14,387 nt of DNA from Candidatus Culexmicrobium cathedralense. Lineage in GTDB: Archaea > Thermoproteota > Methanomethylicia > Culexarchaeales > Culexmicrobiaceae. Position numbers and translations under genes: made by a program. How positions within the stretch are numbered: position 1 is the stretch's first letter; every line of letters starts with the position of its first letter. The stretch covers positions 1-14,387 of the forward strand of contig JANZKC010000007.1 of the NCBI GenBank assembly GCA_025061115.1, written 5' to 3'. The notes below the pieces were generated by a model, which ran no database searches, was not told the DNA's origin, and saw nothing but the letters and a program-made list of their open reading frames with translations. Positions 1,962 through 10,155 of the stretch are shown here, piece by piece.

Positions 1962-2046
1962 AAACTCACCTTAATCTGCATCAATTCAAATCCAAAAATA
2001 ACCTTAAATAACTTCTAATATATTGTTTTTTTAGAGGCGATTACAC
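1962..2046. promoter_or_regulatory. Divergent archaeal promoter region
   Basis: AT-rich gap between divergent starts (1961 minus, 2047 plus). A purine-rich run is followed by TATA-like CCTTAAATA (~2002-2010), which reads TATTTAAGG on the minus strand. SD motifs on both sides. Confidence 0.55.
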
Positions 2047-2637
2047 GTGAAAGATAAAGGTGTGGATATTGGGAGAATTCAGGGGTTTGTGGAAATAATC
2101 GTTAGAGACAAGCATGGAAGAGTTAAGGTTCATATTGGGAGACCGCCTTTTGTGAAGCTTCCAATGATGAAGAAGAAGAAAAATAACCCTCACAGCCTTC
2201 CAATAATGAGTTCTCTTCCAGCTAAAACCATTGACTTGGAGTACTGGCGTAAAAACATTATTACTAATGTTGGATTAGCCGAGATAGTTAGACTTGTATT
2301 CTCTGGGTTAACTGGAACTAAATTCGGCTACCTAGCTATTGGAACTGGCACCACAGCTGAAAGTGCAAGTGACACTGCATTGGAAGCTGAAATTGCACGT
2401 AAATCAGCTTCAGTTTCTCAGACTACTACAACCATTACGGATGACACAGCCCTCTTAGAGGCTACCTTTAGTTCCGCTGACGGGTTATCTGGCACACACG
2501 CAGTTAGTGAAGCTGGAATATTTAATGCAGCTTCGGGTGGAGTGCTTTTAGCTAGAAAAACCTTCTCAGCAGTAAATGTCAATTGGGATGCTGGGGACAG
2601 CTTGACAATAAGATACTACGTGCAGTTCACAAGATAA
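2047..2637 (+). CDS. Phage tail-fibre/baseplate attachment-like virion protein (DUF3751/gpH N-terminal-like)
   Basis: Motifs NIITNVGL...YLAIGTGTTA...DTALEAEIARK...EAGIFNAASGGVLLARKTF...DSLTIRY recognised as typical of this phage structural family. GTG start after GAGGCGA. Confidence 0.75.
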   Translation: MKDKGVDIGRIQGFVEIIVRDKHGRVKVHIGRPPFVKLPMMKKKKNNPHSLPIMSSLPAKTIDLEYWRKNIITNVGLAEIVRLVFSGLTGTKFGYLAIGTGTTAESASDTALEAEIARKSASVSQTTTTITDDTALLEATFSSADGLSGTHAVSEAGIFNAASGGVLLARKTFSAVNVNWDAGDSLTIRYYVQFTR

Positions 2638-2659
2638 CATTAAACAGAGGTGACTAGAA

Positions 2660-3031
2660 GTGCCAGTGAGGATAAGGGAGAAGCAGAGGATTAAAGGAAC
2701 AGTCACTCCATCAGCATTAAATACTGAAACTGACGTGATAAACCTTGCAGATCAGTCTGACGACTACATTATTGAGGGGTACATTGACTTGGCAAATATG
2801 GCTTCAGATGATGTAGTGGAGCTTAAAGCGTACATTGCAGTTGACGGAGCAAATCAAAGGCTAATGGACAAAATAACTTTCTCTGGCACTCAAGAAATAC
2901 CAGTAGTTAGAATTGTTGCTCACACAGTTCCGTATGACGGCAAGTTCAGAATAACTATTACTCAGAAGGCTGGAAGCGCATTGAAGTCATTTCCATATGC
3001 ATTCACGGTGCAGGTGATGGAGACAATCTAA
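2660..3031 (+). CDS. Hypothetical beta-rich protein, probably virion-associated
   Basis: 123-aa ORF with SD GAGGTGA and an alternating hydrophobic beta-strand pattern; lies in an operon with the tail-like gene. Confidence 0.7.
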   Translation: MPVRIREKQRIKGTVTPSALNTETDVINLADQSDDYIIEGYIDLANMASDDVVELKAYIAVDGANQRLMDKITFSGTQEIPVVRIVAHTVPYDGKFRITITQKAGSALKSFPYAFTVQVMETI

Positions 3032-3045
3032 ATGAGGTGAAAAAA

Positions 3046-3423
3046 GTGAGCTTCTGGCACCCAAACAAAATGCCCCTAACACTAATAGGGGCAGATGACA
3101 CTCAAAAGCAGGTGACAGGCACTGCTGAAACTGAAGTAAAATACCTCAGGTTCAGCCAGCCATCGGCAAATGCTTACAGAATGCTCAAAGTGAACTTAAG
3201 CCTATGGGTTTCAGGTGGAACGGGATACGCATACATATACATTAACGATGAAGCAACTCCTAGAATAACCCTCCAAACAACTTCAACTTCAGAGGAAGTG
3301 CTGTCTGGAGAATGCAGCATATCAGATCTTCCTGCTGGAGTCCACATAATTAAGCTGAAAATAAAGAACAGCGATGCAGGTCAAACAACTTATACTGAAT
3401 TGCTGGAGGTGTACGCTAGTTGA
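3046..3423 (+). CDS. Hypothetical beta-sandwich protein, probably virion-associated
   Basis: The track starts at 3037, but SD GAGGTGA (3034-3040) favours GTG at 3046. Thr/Ser-rich beta pattern with LPAGVHIIKLKIK. Stop overlaps the next start (TTGA). Confidence 0.7.
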   Translation: MSFWHPNKMPLTLIGADDTQKQVTGTAETEVKYLRFSQPSANAYRMLKVNLSLWVSGGTGYAYIYINDEATPRITLQTTSTSEEVLSGECSISDLPAGVHIIKLKIKNSDAGQTTYTELLEVYAS

Positions 3424-3887
3424 GTATTGACGTTAGAAGCTGTGAGGAATGCCAAATATGCGTTTCATGTGAAAACTGCTATGGATGCCAATCATGCTAC
3501 ACTTCATGCTACTCATGCTACTCATGTCAAAGATGCGATGTGTGCGACCGCTGCTATTCATGCTATGGCAGCTGCGAGACGTGTCAAAGGTGCTATGGCT
3601 GCCAAAGATGCGATGCATGTGAGAAGTGCTACACTTCATGCTATGGCTGCTATGCCTGCCAGACTTGTGATGAGTGTGAGCATTGCGTCTCATGCTACGG
3701 CAGCTGCGAGACATGTGCAACATGCGTTTTATGTGAGACATGCGATTCATGCCAAATATGCGTTGTATCGTGCTACTCATGCTATTCATGCGAATCATGC
3801 GATGCTGCCCAAACGTGCCCAACATGTCAAGTGTGCGCTGCCTGCGAATCATGCAATGTATGTGGACTTAATGTCATATCTGAGTAG
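3420..3887 (+). CDS. Cys-X-X repeat protein A (45 Cys in 155 aa); candidate radical SAM substrate or metal-binding fibre
   Basis: TTG start coupled to the upstream TGA, SD GGAGGTG. Cys at every third residue, with a CXXS unit at Cys 7, 14, 21, 28 and 35. Confidence 0.88.
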   Translation: MSIDVRSCEECQICVSCENCYGCQSCYTSCYSCYSCQRCDVCDRCYSCYGSCETCQRCYGCQRCDACEKCYTSCYGCYACQTCDECEHCVSCYGSCETCATCVLCETCDSCQICVVSCYSCYSCESCDAAQTCPTCQVCAACESCNVCGLNVISE

Positions 3888-3898
3888 GGGGAGTGAAA

Positions 3899-4411
3899 AT
3901 GAGTTTGAACATACGCAGAAGGGCGGTTAAAACTCCAGATATTAAGGATGTTGAGTGCCCCACGTGCGAAACCTGCGTTACCTGCGACCTATGCGTAACC
4001 TGCTACGGCAGCTGTGAGGCATGTCAAGTATGCGTAGGATGCCAGACTTGTGATGCCTGCCAGAAATGCAATGTAAGTTGCTACAGGTGCTACTCATGCC
4101 AGCGCTGCGACGCATGCGACCAATGCTACAGCTGCTACGGCAGCTGCGAGACATGTCAAGTGTGCGCAGCCTGCGAAACGTGTGATTACTGTCAAGAGTG
4201 CTATTCTTCATGCTATGTATGCTATTCATGCCAGACATGCGACGCATGCGACAAATGCTATACGTGTGAAGGCTCATGTGAGGCATGTCAAATCTGCGTT
4301 TCATGCGAAAAATGCGTGACGTGCTACTTCTGCAACACATGCGAGTCATGCAATACATGCCAAATGTGCTATGACACAACTTATACATGCCCAATAGGAG
4401 TTTACGTATAA
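3899..4411 (+). CDS. Cys-X-X repeat protein B (46 Cys); paralogue of A
   Basis: ATG 3899 (or GTG 3893) after GGGGGAGTGA. Same period, with CXXS at Cys 6, 13, 20, 27 and 34. Shares 24 identical nt with gene A (3693-3716 = 4133-4156). Confidence 0.88.
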   Translation: MSLNIRRRAVKTPDIKDVECPTCETCVTCDLCVTCYGSCEACQVCVGCQTCDACQKCNVSCYRCYSCQRCDACDQCYSCYGSCETCQVCAACETCDYCQECYSSCYVCYSCQTCDACDKCYTCEGSCEACQICVSCEKCVTCYFCNTCESCNTCQMCYDTTYTCPIGVYV

Positions 4412-4458
4412 AAATTAAAATAGTTAAAAGTCAAAAATAGTGATTGTAGGTGAAAGCC

Positions 4459-4722
4459 GTGTCGTGCAAAGTATGTTATGAATGTGAGAAATGCTTTACA
4501 TGTGAAAGGCAATGCGGAATATGCGTTGCATGTGAAGTTGGAGTAGCCCCTCAACCCCAACCTCAGAGAATGCCGCCGCAGCAAAGAAGACCTGCTCAGC
4601 CACCTAGAATGCAAATACAGCAGCCAATAACTAGAGAAGAAGTAAAGGAAATAATACTTGAAACTCTAATTGAACTTGGAGTCATAAAGCCAGCCAAAAG
4701 GAGAGAAGTAAACCTTGAATAG
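4459..4722 (+). CDS. Short Cys-X-X protein C (8 Cys) with Pro/Gln linker and amphipathic C-terminal helix
   Basis: SD AGGTGA (4448-4453) favours GTG 4459 (track: 4450). Sequence CKVCYECEKCFTCERQCGICVAC, then PQPQPQRMPPQQ..., then ITREEVKEIILETLIELGVI. Overlaps the rSAM start. Confidence 0.8.
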   Translation: MSCKVCYECEKCFTCERQCGICVACEVGVAPQPQPQRMPPQQRRPAQPPRMQIQQPITREEVKEIILETLIELGVIKPAKRREVNLE

Positions 4723-5845
4723 AATGCAATTTCCGCCGCTAGGCGAATTAACAGTATGGAATACAAGTAGATGTAACTTCAGGTGCAAATATTGCTTCGT
4801 CTTTAAATTATATGAGGATATTCCTCGCCAAGAAATGCAGAGAGAAACCATGAATGCACTACTGCATTTTGCACGCCACAATCTTAGAAGAGATGGAATG
4901 ATATGGTTTTTCGGCGGTGAGCCGCTGGTCAGCTTCGACACTATGAAGTATATTACTGAGAAGGCTGTTGCAGATAATCTCGCCATAAGATTTGGAGTTA
5001 CAACTAACTGCTACCTGCTCAACAAGGATATCCTCAAATGGATGAAAAAGTATGGTTACGGCATTCTATGCAGCATAGATGGACTGCAGAAAACACATGA
5101 CAAATACCGTGTATTGCCAGATGGCAGAGGCACATGGAAAGTAGTATGGGAGAACATAAAGAAAGTCAAGAAAATATTGAATCCAAATCCACAACTAAGA
5201 TGGACTTTTTCACCAGAAACAATTGACGGTCTTACCGAAGGATTAAAATTCTTCGTCAAGCATGGCTTCACAAACGTAGCAATAGACGCAGTATATGAAG
5301 TTGAATGGGACGAAGACAGCCTCAACCAACTTAGAGAAGAACTAACCAAAATGCGTGACTTCCTAGACAAATGCTATGAGAGAAACATACCAGTATTCAG
5401 CATGTTCGTTAGAGATGCAGCAACGGCAGTAATGAACAACAGAAGAATAAACTGGACTCAAAGATGTGGGTTAGGTCAAGGCGGAGTGGGAGTGGCTCCA
5501 GACGGCAAAATATACCCCTGTCACAGATTCTGTTCTTCAAGGAAGCTTGTGATTGGAAGTGTGTTTGACGGATTTTATCCAGAGAGGATATATTTGAACG
5601 AAGAGTGGCAAAAAGTTCCGCCTTACTGTGAGGTTCCAGAGAGATGTCTAAGTTGTAAATTCAAAAATGCATGTATGGGCGGCTGCCTTGCTGTGAACTA
5701 CGACTTATTTGGAGACATGCATATAGTTCCAAAAGCAATGTGCGACATAAAGAACATTGTAGTGGAAGTCTTTAAGCCGCTAGTTGTAAAGCATAAGGAT
5801 AATCCTACGTTTAGAAGAATATTCAAAGTTCAGGTGAGAGAATGA
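4715..5845 (+). CDS. Radical SAM/SPASM-domain protein (anSME/peptide-maturase-like)
   Basis: CNFRCKYC (CxxxCxxC), FFGGEPL, TTN and SIDG motifs. SPASM cysteines in CGLGQGGVGVAPDGKIYPCHRF and CLSCKFKNACMGGC...C. No N-terminal RRE extension. Confidence 0.95.
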   Translation: MNRMQFPPLGELTVWNTSRCNFRCKYCFVFKLYEDIPRQEMQRETMNALLHFARHNLRRDGMIWFFGGEPLVSFDTMKYITEKAVADNLAIRFGVTTNCYLLNKDILKWMKKYGYGILCSIDGLQKTHDKYRVLPDGRGTWKVVWENIKKVKKILNPNPQLRWTFSPETIDGLTEGLKFFVKHGFTNVAIDAVYEVEWDEDSLNQLREELTKMRDFLDKCYERNIPVFSMFVRDAATAVMNNRRINWTQRCGLGQGGVGVAPDGKIYPCHRFCSSRKLVIGSVFDGFYPERIYLNEEWQKVPPYCEVPERCLSCKFKNACMGGCLAVNYDLFGDMHIVPKAMCDIKNIVVEVFKPLVVKHKDNPTFRRIFKVQVRE

Positions 5846-6099
5846 GTAAAATTAAAAATTTAGTTAAAGCAGTTCTAGGATTAATAATTTTCACCTTATT
5901 TCTTATGGCTGTCGTCCCGTCGGCACCTGTGGTGGTTGCATTTTGGTTTATTCCAATAATAGTTCTAGTGATGGTTGGATGGTTTGCAGTAATTTTAGGA
6001 GTTGTAGCTTGGATTATAAATAAGTTGAAAAGAAAATCGAAGTTTTCTGATTTAACGAGAAGTCCTAAAAGCAATATGCGACGTAAAGACGCTTGTTAG
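5842..6099 (+). CDS. Small membrane protein (about 2 TM segments, basic termini)
   Basis: ATGA overlap with the rSAM stop; long hydrophobic stretch over roughly residues 7-59; Lys/Arg-rich tail. Confidence 0.7.
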   Translation: MSKIKNLVKAVLGLIIFTLFLMAVVPSAPVVVAFWFIPIIVLVMVGWFAVILGVVAWIINKLKRKSKFSDLTRSPKSNMRRKDAC

Positions 6100-7312: not shown

Positions 7313-7987
7313 GTGGAGGTGATTCAGCATTCTATGAACCCAGTTAGAAAGGGTTCTGGGTGGGAGCACCTTCTAGTGATTGCAAGAATTGAAGGGTTAA
7401 AGAGGGCTTACACGTGGAATCCAGCTGTAGGCTGTCACGGAATTGGATGTGAAGTTAAGAAGCGTGGAGTCTGCTGGGCTGAAAAGTTTGCTAAGCGATT
7501 TAAAATTGACTTTACTCCTCACTTGATTCCAGAGAGGTTGAAGGATCCTTACAGGCTCAAGAAGAGTGCAGTGATTACACCTGTAAGTATGGGAGACCTG
7601 TTTGGATTGGAGCCGCAGCACACTGAAGCTATATTAAATGTTATAAGAGACTGTAGCTGGCATAAATTTGCAATACTTACTAAGCTTCCTCAAAACGCAT
7701 TAAAGTTCAATCCATTTCCAAGTAATGTTTGGTTTGGTGTTTCAGTTAACTTGCAAGATGACGTTTGGAGGCTTGACTGCCTAAAGAGAGTTGAGGCTCC
7801 AAGAAAATACGTGCTTTTTGAGCCATTATACTCTGCAATTAACTATGACCTTTCATGGCTAGACCTAATTGTAATTGGCTGTCAAAGCTACCCTACAGTT
7901 CAGCCTAAGAAGGAGTGGGTTGAAAGCATACTTAGAAATAGCGGTTCAGCCAAAGTATTCTTCAAATCAAATCTAAAGCCAATTTAA
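7313..7987 (+). CDS. DUF5131 / phage Gp37Gp68-family protein (three-Cys, radical-SAM-like)
   Basis: TWNPAVGC...C...CWAE, SMGDLF, ILTK, NVWFGVSV, FEPL, WLDLIVIG and VFFK motifs. Start uncertain (7313, 7334 or 7376). Confidence 0.88.
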   Translation: MEVIQHSMNPVRKGSGWEHLLVIARIEGLKRAYTWNPAVGCHGIGCEVKKRGVCWAEKFAKRFKIDFTPHLIPERLKDPYRLKKSAVITPVSMGDLFGLEPQHTEAILNVIRDCSWHKFAILTKLPQNALKFNPFPSNVWFGVSVNLQDDVWRLDCLKRVEAPRKYVLFEPLYSAINYDLSWLDLIVIGCQSYPTVQPKKEWVESILRNSGSAKVFFKSNLKPI

Positions 7988-9035: not shown

Positions 9036-9201
9036 CTTCCCCCTCTTTAACTTCTAGTTTCTTAATTCTCAATTCGCCGTCGCCTTTCTCCAGCTTTAAT
9101 AGTTCACCTTCCTTCCAGTTCAGTTCTCTCACTATTTTTATTGGCAGTGGTATGTAGTATGATTTGTATATTTTTCTCAGAAAAACTATCTTGGACTTCA
9201 C
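9022..9201 (-). CDS. AbrB/MazE/SpoVT-family DNA-binding protein (59 aa)
   Basis: LRKIYKSYYIPLPIKIVRELNWKEGELLKLEKGDGELRIKKL is a swapped-hairpin signature. GTG 9201 follows SD GGAGGTG (track start 9393 is too long). Confidence 0.85.
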   Translation of the reverse strand: MKSKIVFLRKIYKSYYIPLPIKIVRELNWKEGELLKLEKGDGELRIKKLEVKEGEDESG

Positions 9202-9254
9202 TTTCACACCTCCAAAAAATTTTAATAGTTTGCAACATATAAATTTTATGAAAA
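9200..9254. repeat. 55-bp direct repeat, copy 1 (divergent promoter/SD cassette)
   Basis: actttcacacctccaaaaaattttaatagtttgcaacatataaattttatgaaaa; 52/55 identical to 10101-10155. Confidence 0.92.
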
Positions 9255-10100: not shown

Positions 10101-10155
10101 ACTTTCACACCTCCAAAAAATTTAAATAGTTTATAACATATAAATTTTATGAAAA
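10101..10155. repeat. 55-bp direct repeat, copy 2 (divergent promoter/SD cassette)
   Basis: actttcacacctccaaaaaatttaaatagtttataacatataaattttatgaaaa; again lies between divergent genes. Confidence 0.92.

Follow-up and report, generated by a model that had tools for sequence, protein, structure and literature searches.

Two adjacent genes of an archaeal virus-like contig, here called A and B, raise the question of what use is made of proteins in which cysteine recurs at every third residue over most of their length. The window analysed is contig JANZKC010000007.1 of the Candidatus Culexmicrobium cathedralense assembly GCA_025061115.1 (14,387 nt; C7 where it must be told from its neighbours), which is the whole of one contig of a 1.98-Mb archaeal metagenome-assembled genome (MAG). 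Comparison of the predicted proteins with their relatives indicates that A and B belong to a previously undescribed family whose members appear to be encoded immediately before a dedicated PapB-like radical S-adenosylmethionine (SAM)/SPASM enzyme, and we propose, with about even confidence, that a thioether-forming maturase acts on A and B as a pair and that they build a cross-linked, tail-associated rod. A literature search confined to journals outside subscription found no report of such CXX arrays or of radical SAM enzymes in virions.

Two cysteine arrays and their repeat

Gene A (3420..3887, + strand) encodes 155 aa with 45 cysteines and starts at a TTG codon that overlaps the stop codon of the upstream open reading frame (ORF) in the sequence TTGA, with GGAGGTG 10 nt upstream. 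Gene B (3899..4411, + strand) encodes 170 aa with 46 cysteines from an ATG at 3899, its ORF being open from a GTG at 3893. The distances between successive cysteines in A follow the string 333333-4 five times, and those in B follow 33333-4 once and then 333333-4 four times; each protein therefore has five 4-residue CXXS units, or stutters, which lie 22 residues apart and fall at Cys 7, 14, 21, 28 and 35 of A and at Cys 6, 13, 20, 27 and 34 of B. The initial annotation of this DNA had described one additional residue in every seventh Cys unit, always a serine and five times per protein, and the distance strings bear this out, with serine ending all ten stutters (CYTS, CYGS, CYTS, CYGS and CVVS in A; CYGS, CNVS, CYGS, CYSS and CEGS in B). 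Distances of exactly 3 make up 38 of 44 in A and 39 of 45 in B, whereas residue shuffles (20,000 per protein) gave a mean of 6.5 and a maximum of 17.

The 22-residue units alternate between two types, 'CE.CQ...C(Y/N/V)xS' and 'CY.CY.CQ.CD.CD.CY.C(Y/E)GS', and so form the 44-residue super-repeat that had also been recognised at the outset. Units A2 and B3 are identical at 19 of 22 positions, and adjacent units share 9-10 residues, seven of which are the cysteines. The super-repeat can be followed in the DNA as a 132-nt (44-codon) repeat family, D1 (3438..4301, + strand), with copies beginning at 3438, 3570 and 3702 in A and at 4010, 4142 and 4199 in B (60-73% identity to the reference copy). 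The 17-mer TGCTACACTTCATGCTA, which the same annotation quoted as recurring 132 nt apart, occurs exactly twice, at 3495 and 3627, and this was matched in none of 200 shuffles. B is a paralogue of A (62% identity over 113 residues) offset by one 22-mer, and its first unit has six cysteines before the stutter, so that B is offset from A by half a super-repeat.

Cysteine accounts for approximately 29% of the array residues. Its codons TGC and TGT are used 34 and 11 times in A and 37 and 9 times in B, and because both are in use it is the cysteine residue that is conserved and not a DNA word. The remaining triplet positions are occupied by Y, E, D, Q, T, S, V or A in 126 of 154 cases, in agreement with the restricted composition first proposed; the usual residues are Q, E, Y, D or V at X1 and T, S, A, R or V at X2. 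There are 12 CX3[DE] motifs in each protein and 22-24 if Asn and Gln are admitted (CX3[DENQ]). Three other long ORFs cover the array stretch (3427-3930 on the + strand, 3433-3852 and 3978-4394 on the - strand), but their products are Ala/His-rich or Ser/Arg/Met-rich and we take these ORFs to be shadows of the repeat.

The spacing of the stutters varies among relatives. The closest orthologous pair, A' and B' of the metagenome contig L111, has conserved termini and the string 3333-4, with 5 Cys per 16 residues and seven stutters in each protein, and the earlier suggestion that 7 Cys per 22 residues reflects a geometric or stoichiometric constraint is accordingly not borne out. Nor do homologues differ in length only by multiples of 22 or 44 aa, as had been anticipated, as periods of 10, 16, 17, 19 and 22 are all seen: other relatives have the strings 334 (period 10), 3337 (16), 33335 (17) and 333337 (22), and single chains of the viral clade have a period that grows along their length (16, 16, 16, 19, 22, 22, 22). 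Most stutters, whether units of 4 or of 7 residues, shift the triplet phase by +1. The 427-aa protein P0019, a relative found by phmmer, has the same 333333-4 string, 22-residue period and 44-residue alternation (CDGV/CDGF units) in an otherwise different sequence, and its C-terminal part resembles what we take to be a bacterial secretion-sorting domain. The 22-residue period thus looks like a lineage-specific spacing of stutters, recurrent yet not required.

Neither A nor B, nor the product of gene C downstream of them, has a match in Pfam or NCBIfam. The sole library family matching the arrays is phrog_15341 (A, E 1e-8, 35.9 bits; B, E 1.3e-5, 25.7 bits), and although both matches are significant this is a viral family of unknown function, such that membership explains nothing. 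Other CXX-run proteins match it far better than A does (P0010, E 7e-37), and its best members, which come from AT-rich phages, are CXXC runs rich in Asn, Lys and Glu that do not have the Q/D/E-T/S composition of A and B. An exhaustive phmmer search with A recovered 29 relatives, the best of which are proteins of 840-1020 aa with an N-terminal part matching phrog_8917 and a C-terminal CXX array. None of 26 candidates from a word-indexed search among proteins close to A in length was significant, and tblastn of A against phage records with the low-complexity filter on gave no match. One of the long relatives, P0002, contains at residues ~283-415 a domain of ~130 aa that is common to proteins with Baseplate_J, beta-helix/NosD or Prophage_tail domains and to multihaem cytochrome-like proteins, and one truncated relative of P0002 carries a label that places it in a Promethearchaeota MAG. 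We considered that CXX arrays might also be fused to Baseplate_J/beta-helix proteins on account of P0002 hits of ~15% coverage, but dropped this, because the four of these hits that were read (P0217, P0199, P0189 and P0180) have no Cys array and share the internal ~130-aa domain.

A constant companion enzyme

Gene C (4450..4722, + strand) encodes 90 aa with a short CXX run (8 Cys) in the N-terminal part, a linker rich in Pro and Gln and, towards the C-terminus, what reads by eye as an amphipathic helix; it is 36% identical (E 2e-8) to the gene at the same position in L111. Two bases past its stop codon is the gene for the radical SAM/SPASM enzyme (4724..5845, + strand), with 373 aa from an ATG at 4724 (the ORF is open from a TTG at 4715). 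The enzyme matches PF04055 (59.5 bits), and its translation contains CNFRCKYC (CX3CX2C) together with CX12GX4C and CX2CX5CX3C, the full SPASM set of cysteines; C248, C266, C308, C311, C317, C321 and C340 are invariant among 23 relatives. In the viral loci L021 (9111-10673) and L025 (11288-12814) the SAM-cluster motif of the array-linked enzyme is CX3CX3C (CNLSCKYPC and CNFRCAYPC) and not CX3CX2C.

The best NCBIfam match of the window enzyme is to PapB (NF047865, E 1.3e-61, 208.7 bits), followed by the ScfB-related, SCIFF maturase and QhpD families. PapB is the best NCBIfam match for all six array-linked enzymes tested, with the Cys-thioether formers SCIFF maturase, QhpD and ScfB-related next, together with the nif11-like peptide maturase, and anaerobic sulfatase maturase far lower; the scores of the five other enzymes lie at 187-212 bits and all six fall short of the 340-bit curated cut-off. 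Alignment of the window enzyme begins at position 5 of the PapB model and at position 105 of the SCIFF maturase model, indicating an enzyme without an N-terminal recognition domain of the RRE (RiPP recognition element, RiPP being a ribosomally synthesised and post-translationally modified peptide) kind. The closest solved structure is 5wgg ('Radical SAM domain protein', E 9.6e-36), which we take to be the thioether-forming SCIFF maturase CteB. PADLOC matched only the radical SAM core that the enzyme has generically in common with viperins.

The order of genes in the window recurs elsewhere. L111 has A', B', C' and a radical SAM enzyme 62% identical to that of the window, in the same order. L021 encodes, in this order, a tape-measure protein (PF10145, above cut-off), a protein of 367 aa, one of 944 aa that has an array at its end, a free-standing array protein of 262 aa and a 518-aa radical SAM enzyme whose N-terminus carries four 'CKKCY.CE..V.K' repeats. 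The same trio of array, array and radical SAM enzyme is present in L022, L023 (identical to L024) and L025, and in four viral contigs the first array forms the C-terminus of a protein of 820-1470 aa. In L113 a radical SAM enzyme with a CXX-bearing N-terminus comes after two arrays, of which the first is truncated by the end of the contig; L119 has one array, truncated likewise at the contig start, and then an enzyme of the same kind, and L031, from a Bathycorpusculum MAG, encodes a single protein of 529 aa, with the Cys array at its C-terminus, and then the enzyme. Two arrays and an enzyme thus follow one another in the window, L111, L021, L022, L023, L025 and L113, and the enzyme adjoins an array in all nine distinct loci that reach far enough (the window and eight others); in the other five of ten viral loci the contig stops short of the expected position. 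The enzymes of L021-L025, L113 and L119 have N-terminal extensions with CXX, and gene C corresponds to the CK.CY.CE repeats that are fused to the enzyme N-terminus in the viral clade.

A CXX array was found in none of 79 other radical SAM loci in genome contigs and none of 77 in metagenome contigs. The profile scans from which these loci derive were dominated by SCIFF-type enzymes and yielded one close relative each, L031 from genome contigs and L111 from metagenome contigs; a single-sequence scan of viral contigs with the enzyme gave no match. In a tree of 62 radical SAM enzymes those linked to arrays fall in three well-supported clades (98, 100 and 99), apart from a 29-row clade free of arrays.

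A second kind of Cys array lies upstream of radical SAM/SPASM genes in viral contigs L205 (3063-3992), L206/L207 (3924-4592) and L221 (1552-2067). It consists of CTG/CSG/CTS units with mixed 3- and 4-residue spacing behind an N-terminal domain of ~120 aa, and the adjacent enzymes form a clade of their own (99). Directly after the array-linked enzyme, L113 encodes a 1310-aa protein (1979-5908) made largely of Gly-Pro-Thr collagen-like triplets.

Probable pairing, proposed cross-linking and the alternatives

The two arrays of a locus are closely matched. Their spans are 141 and 145 residues in the window, 131 and 135 in L111, 296 and 301 in L021, 240 and 239 in L023, and 242 and 246 in L025, and the stutters follow equal triplet counts in both partners. 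The third residue of successive stutters in the window is T, G, T, G, V in A and G, V, G, S, G in B, so that Gly stands opposite a Thr/Val/Ser-type residue at all five levels, and in L111 the Gly-type is opposite the Thr/Val/Ser-type at seven of seven. In L021, L023 and L025 the stutters at levels 2-7 read QGG, QGG, V, V, V, V in partner 1 and V, V, QGG, QGG, QGG, QGG in partner 2; a QGG-type is again opposite an xxNVxS-type and both partners switch at the same level. L023 and L025 orthologues are closer to each other (non-Cys identity 0.38-0.41) than are the partners within a locus (0.29-0.30), and the match of partners there is therefore not simple homogenisation and has been kept across lineages. 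These loci amount to only two or three independent groups. Because spans and stutter positions match and the stutter types are complementary within loci, A and B probably pair in register, and the in-register hetero-oligomer that the initial annotation suggested from equal repeat numbers has gained good comparative support in five loci. Its analogy with collagen holds in part: there are triplet repeats in a fibre gene neighbourhood, but Gly at every third residue is absent (Gly is 4 of 77 X2 triplet residues, and the third residue in five of ten stutter units).

We suggest that A and B would first align in register, with the +1 stutters at the same levels and Gly-type facing Thr/Val/Ser-type, and that the radical SAM/SPASM enzyme would then turn many of the approximately 90 thiols into thioether cross-links of the ranthionine type, in which the sulfur is bonded to a carbon of a side chain. 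Docking of the enzyme on the array may be the task of protein C; in other viruses the same CXX motif is fused to the enzyme itself. The product would be a redox-insensitive, covalently stapled rod forming part of the virion tail or fibre. We infer the role of A and B as substrates, the thioether chemistry, their physical pairing and their location in the virion from these comparisons. A and B are read as substrates because the nearest characterised relatives of their constant companion enzyme form Cys thioethers. This enzyme and the viral tail context, neither of which entered the initial annotation, suggest that the cysteines are covalently modified. Besides PapB, the SCIFF maturase and QhpD likewise form Cys thioethers, those of QhpC/QhpD lying within a subunit of quinohemoprotein amine dehydrogenase. 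PapB is described in PMC9413430 as linking the Cys sulfur to C-beta of Asp or C-gamma of Glu and as accepting nested motifs and Cys-Xn-Asp spacings of n = 0-6. The same paper gives a loss of 2 Da per Cys, with macrocycles that do not fragment, as the signature of ranthionines in mass spectrometry. The tail is indicated by the tape-measure gene on the joined contig C6 (see below) and by L021, where the 944-aa protein ending in an array is encoded two genes after the tape-measure gene.

Several observations weigh against this proposal. In L111, A' and B' have a non-Cys identity of 0.67, compared with 0.58 and 0.49 to their orthologues, and the partners in L021 share identical units, so that matched lengths could come partly from gene conversion between paralogues. 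AlphaFold2 gave no confident model of A from a 10-row alignment (mean predicted local distance difference test score, pLDDT, 35.8). The deep branching order of the three array-linked enzyme clades lacks support in the tree. A and B are free-standing in the window and not fused to a tail protein, and their presence in the virion is deduced from neighbours and distant relatives. The matches of the radical SAM enzymes are all below curated cut-offs, and the chemistry is an extrapolation. Moreover, the L111 orthologues are almost without Asp and Glu (X1 is Q27, Y18, V13 and E4, with no Asp), and for this reason a link of the PapB type from Cys to Asp or Glu cannot be what all members of the family share, which would leave Gln, Tyr, Val, Ser, Thr or a backbone carbon as acceptor. 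As to other structure predictions, AlphaFold2 of the 959-aa relative P0002 (five rows) was unusable with a mean pLDDT of 30.1, the ESM Atlas had no usable match for A, and prediction of the A+B complex returned an ipSAE interface score of 0.00 in two runs made without controls, which we use neither way.

The data on in-register pairing fit equally well a metal-thiolate rod, in which CXXC pairs of the two chains would chelate a row of Zn, Fe or Cu in M(Cys)4 sites and the radical SAM enzyme would be minor or the cysteines left free; this is the metal-sulfur wire of the initial annotation. CXXC is the classic metal-chelating spacing, the Cys content is of a kind that would suit such a rod, and both matches from a search of PDB sequences with A were non-significant (E 0.048 and 0.069), both being to one zinc-binding ZZ domain, that of HERC2. 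We nonetheless consider this explanation unlikely, as it leaves a dedicated PapB-like enzyme in nine of nine loci unexplained and A and B match no metal-binding family in Pfam or NCBIfam; more specifically, no metallothionein family model from either library matches them.

It is somewhat less likely still that A and B are not virion parts but effectors, released or intracellular, that the virus would produce in its host and the radical SAM enzyme would mature, such as a giant RiPP-like toxin or a superinfection-exclusion or anti-defence factor. To judge by the names of the NCBIfam matches, radical SAM/SPASM enzymes of this group usually mature secreted peptides, and the free-standing state of A and B would suit an effector. 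An antiphage precedent is described in PMC13128918, where the bacterial protein HxsA, with five tripeptide His-Xaa-Ser (HXS) repeats, is matured by the radical SAM enzymes HxsB and HxsC. However, no leader can be recognised in A or B, PADLOC has no model for A, B or C, and the genes nearby are fibre-like; moreover, the 820-1470-aa proteins of four viral contigs carry the array at their C-terminal end, and the one in L021 is encoded two genes after the tape-measure gene. The HXS system resembles the present one in combining a tripeptide-repeat protein with a radical SAM enzyme, and HxsB is a distant match of the window enzyme (E 2.5e-31), but here there are 42-83 CXX repeats, one radical SAM enzyme and a viral tail context, and the match reaches 109 bits where the cut-off is 370.

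Least probable is modification of the arrays by another radical SAM chemistry (Cys to formylglycine, sactionine links from sulfur to C-alpha, or epimerisation), which the matches below family cut-offs, the additional matches to anaerobic sulfatase and sactipeptide maturases (E 1e-24 to 1e-25) and the lack of conserved acidic acceptors in L111 would allow, but against which all six enzymes best match the non-alpha thioether formers PapB, SCIFF maturase and QhpD, with E-values 30-60 orders of magnitude better than that of the sulfatase maturase.

The proposed stapling of paired arrays can also be compared with the known systems that it most resembles. As in PapA/PapB (freyrasin), a radical SAM/SPASM enzyme adjoins a Cys-rich putative substrate with repeated Cys...Asp/Glu motifs, and the window enzyme is co-linear with the whole PapB model without an extra N-terminal domain. 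PapA has six CX3D/E motifs according to PMC9413430, whereas here there are two arrays of 155-314 aa with 42-83 Cys each. These are matched to one another, lack an evident leader and do not conserve the acidic acceptors, and some viruses have them as part of large fusion proteins. SCIFF peptides are of similar flavour (C-[QEK]-[TS]-x-C runs), 5wgg is the closest structure to the window enzyme, and SCIFF-like peptides also adjoin phage radical SAM enzymes (L008); however, the window enzyme scores 148 bits against the 425-bit cut-off of the SCIFF maturase (TIGR03974) and lacks its first ~100 model positions, and the SCIFF-type loci are those of the separate 29-row clade without arrays. QhpC/QhpD is alike in that a radical SAM/SPASM enzyme acts on a protein and not a released peptide (E 4.6e-38 for the window, 3.6e-46 for L022), and unlike in its score (131 bits for the window enzyme, cut-off 453), in its dehydrogenase context, which is absent here, and in the repeat arrays found here. 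The CXXX-repeat peptide maturase (TIGR04115) is more distant (110 bits against 350), and the repeat period here is 3 and not 4. With the collagen-like (Gly-X-Y) phage tail fibres the arrays have in common strict triplets in a tail-fibre neighbourhood and a multi-chain, in-register assembly inferred for both, but Cys replaces Gly at every third residue, the triple-helix packing rule is unmet, and the +1 stutters and the dedicated radical SAM enzyme are found here. The enzyme-substrate logic would be that of the ranthipeptides, SCIFF and QhpC, and in that respect is already known. What appears to be new is a long pair of complementary CXX arrays with regular +1 stutters as the predicted substrate, together with a putative CXX-bearing docking piece in place of a leader-recognition domain; the fusion of arrays to large viral proteins, one of them encoded two genes past a tape-measure gene, is also new.

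The viral setting and its implications

The window is one of two contigs that join. Bases 1-127 of C7 are identical to the last 127 bases of contig C6, and bases 1-104 of C6 reappear as their reverse complement at C7 14261-14364. Because of these shared ends and the gene for a 1472-aa tape-measure protein on C6, we take C6 and C7 to be the genome of a tailed virus of ~40 kb, about half of which is C7; it is either bounded by inverted terminal repeats or closed through a long palindrome. C6 also encodes two glycosyltransferases and a methyltransferase, which lie among the tail genes (14476-15540, 22120-23157 and 23810-24655), and in L111 a fused glycosyltransferase-methyltransferase gene is located just upstream of the array genes. 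Upstream of A in the window is a tail-fibre-like gene (2047..2637, + strand) with matches to phrog_4176 (tail fiber protein, E 2.7e-14) and phrog_5417 (E 4e-19) and a weak Pfam match to the Gp80 fibre, which places the array module in a virion tail and fibre neighbourhood. The 128-aa ORF upstream of A has no significant similarity (E 0.026) to the ORF at the same position in L111.

The host is less readily assigned. The best matches of the small- and large-subunit ribosomal RNA genes of the MAG are to archaeal models, the contamination of the MAG is 7.65%, and no mcrA was found in its genome. Of the 62 genomes in the class of the MAG only the MAG itself has the window radical SAM enzyme, and the named relatives of the enzyme are from Bathyarchaeia MAGs; the contig may be mis-binned, or the virus recently acquired. 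A 21-nt match between C7 and contig C1 was considered as a CRISPR spacer and rejected, since it sits in ordinary coding-like sequence and not in a CRISPR array.

Elsewhere in the window, the protein encoded at 7313-7987 belongs to DUF5131 (PF07505, E 2e-29) and has further matches to 'radical SAM mobile pair protein A', where it stays below the cut-off, and to the PADLOC candidate models PDC-M41B (E 6e-30) and PDC-M30B (E 9e-30). A 55-nt direct repeat (family D3; 9200-9254 and 10101-10155, 95% identical, copies 901 nt apart) is possibly a regulatory element. A promoter and terminator scan of the window was at chance level with a sigma-70 model, which is ill-suited to an archaeal virus.

Radical SAM/SPASM maturases are known for small cross-linked peptides, and here one is tied to long paired repeat proteins whose matched, complementary stutters provide a concrete pairing rule. 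We raise the tentative and rather speculative possibility that CXX arrays with +1 stutters constitute a third fibre-forming repeat, beside the GXY of collagen and the heptad of coiled coils, in which two complementary, in-register chains would be stitched by a virus-encoded radical SAM enzyme with dozens of thioethers into a redox-proof rod in the tails of viruses of anaerobic archaea, in effect a ranthipeptide on the scale of a protein. If A and B are stapled as proposed, they would be the first case of a virion structure cross-linked by a radical enzyme and would offer a natural template for heavily stapled protein rods. Should the thioethers form, they would represent a new viral route to a stable tail in the anoxic, reducing habitats where disulfides fail.

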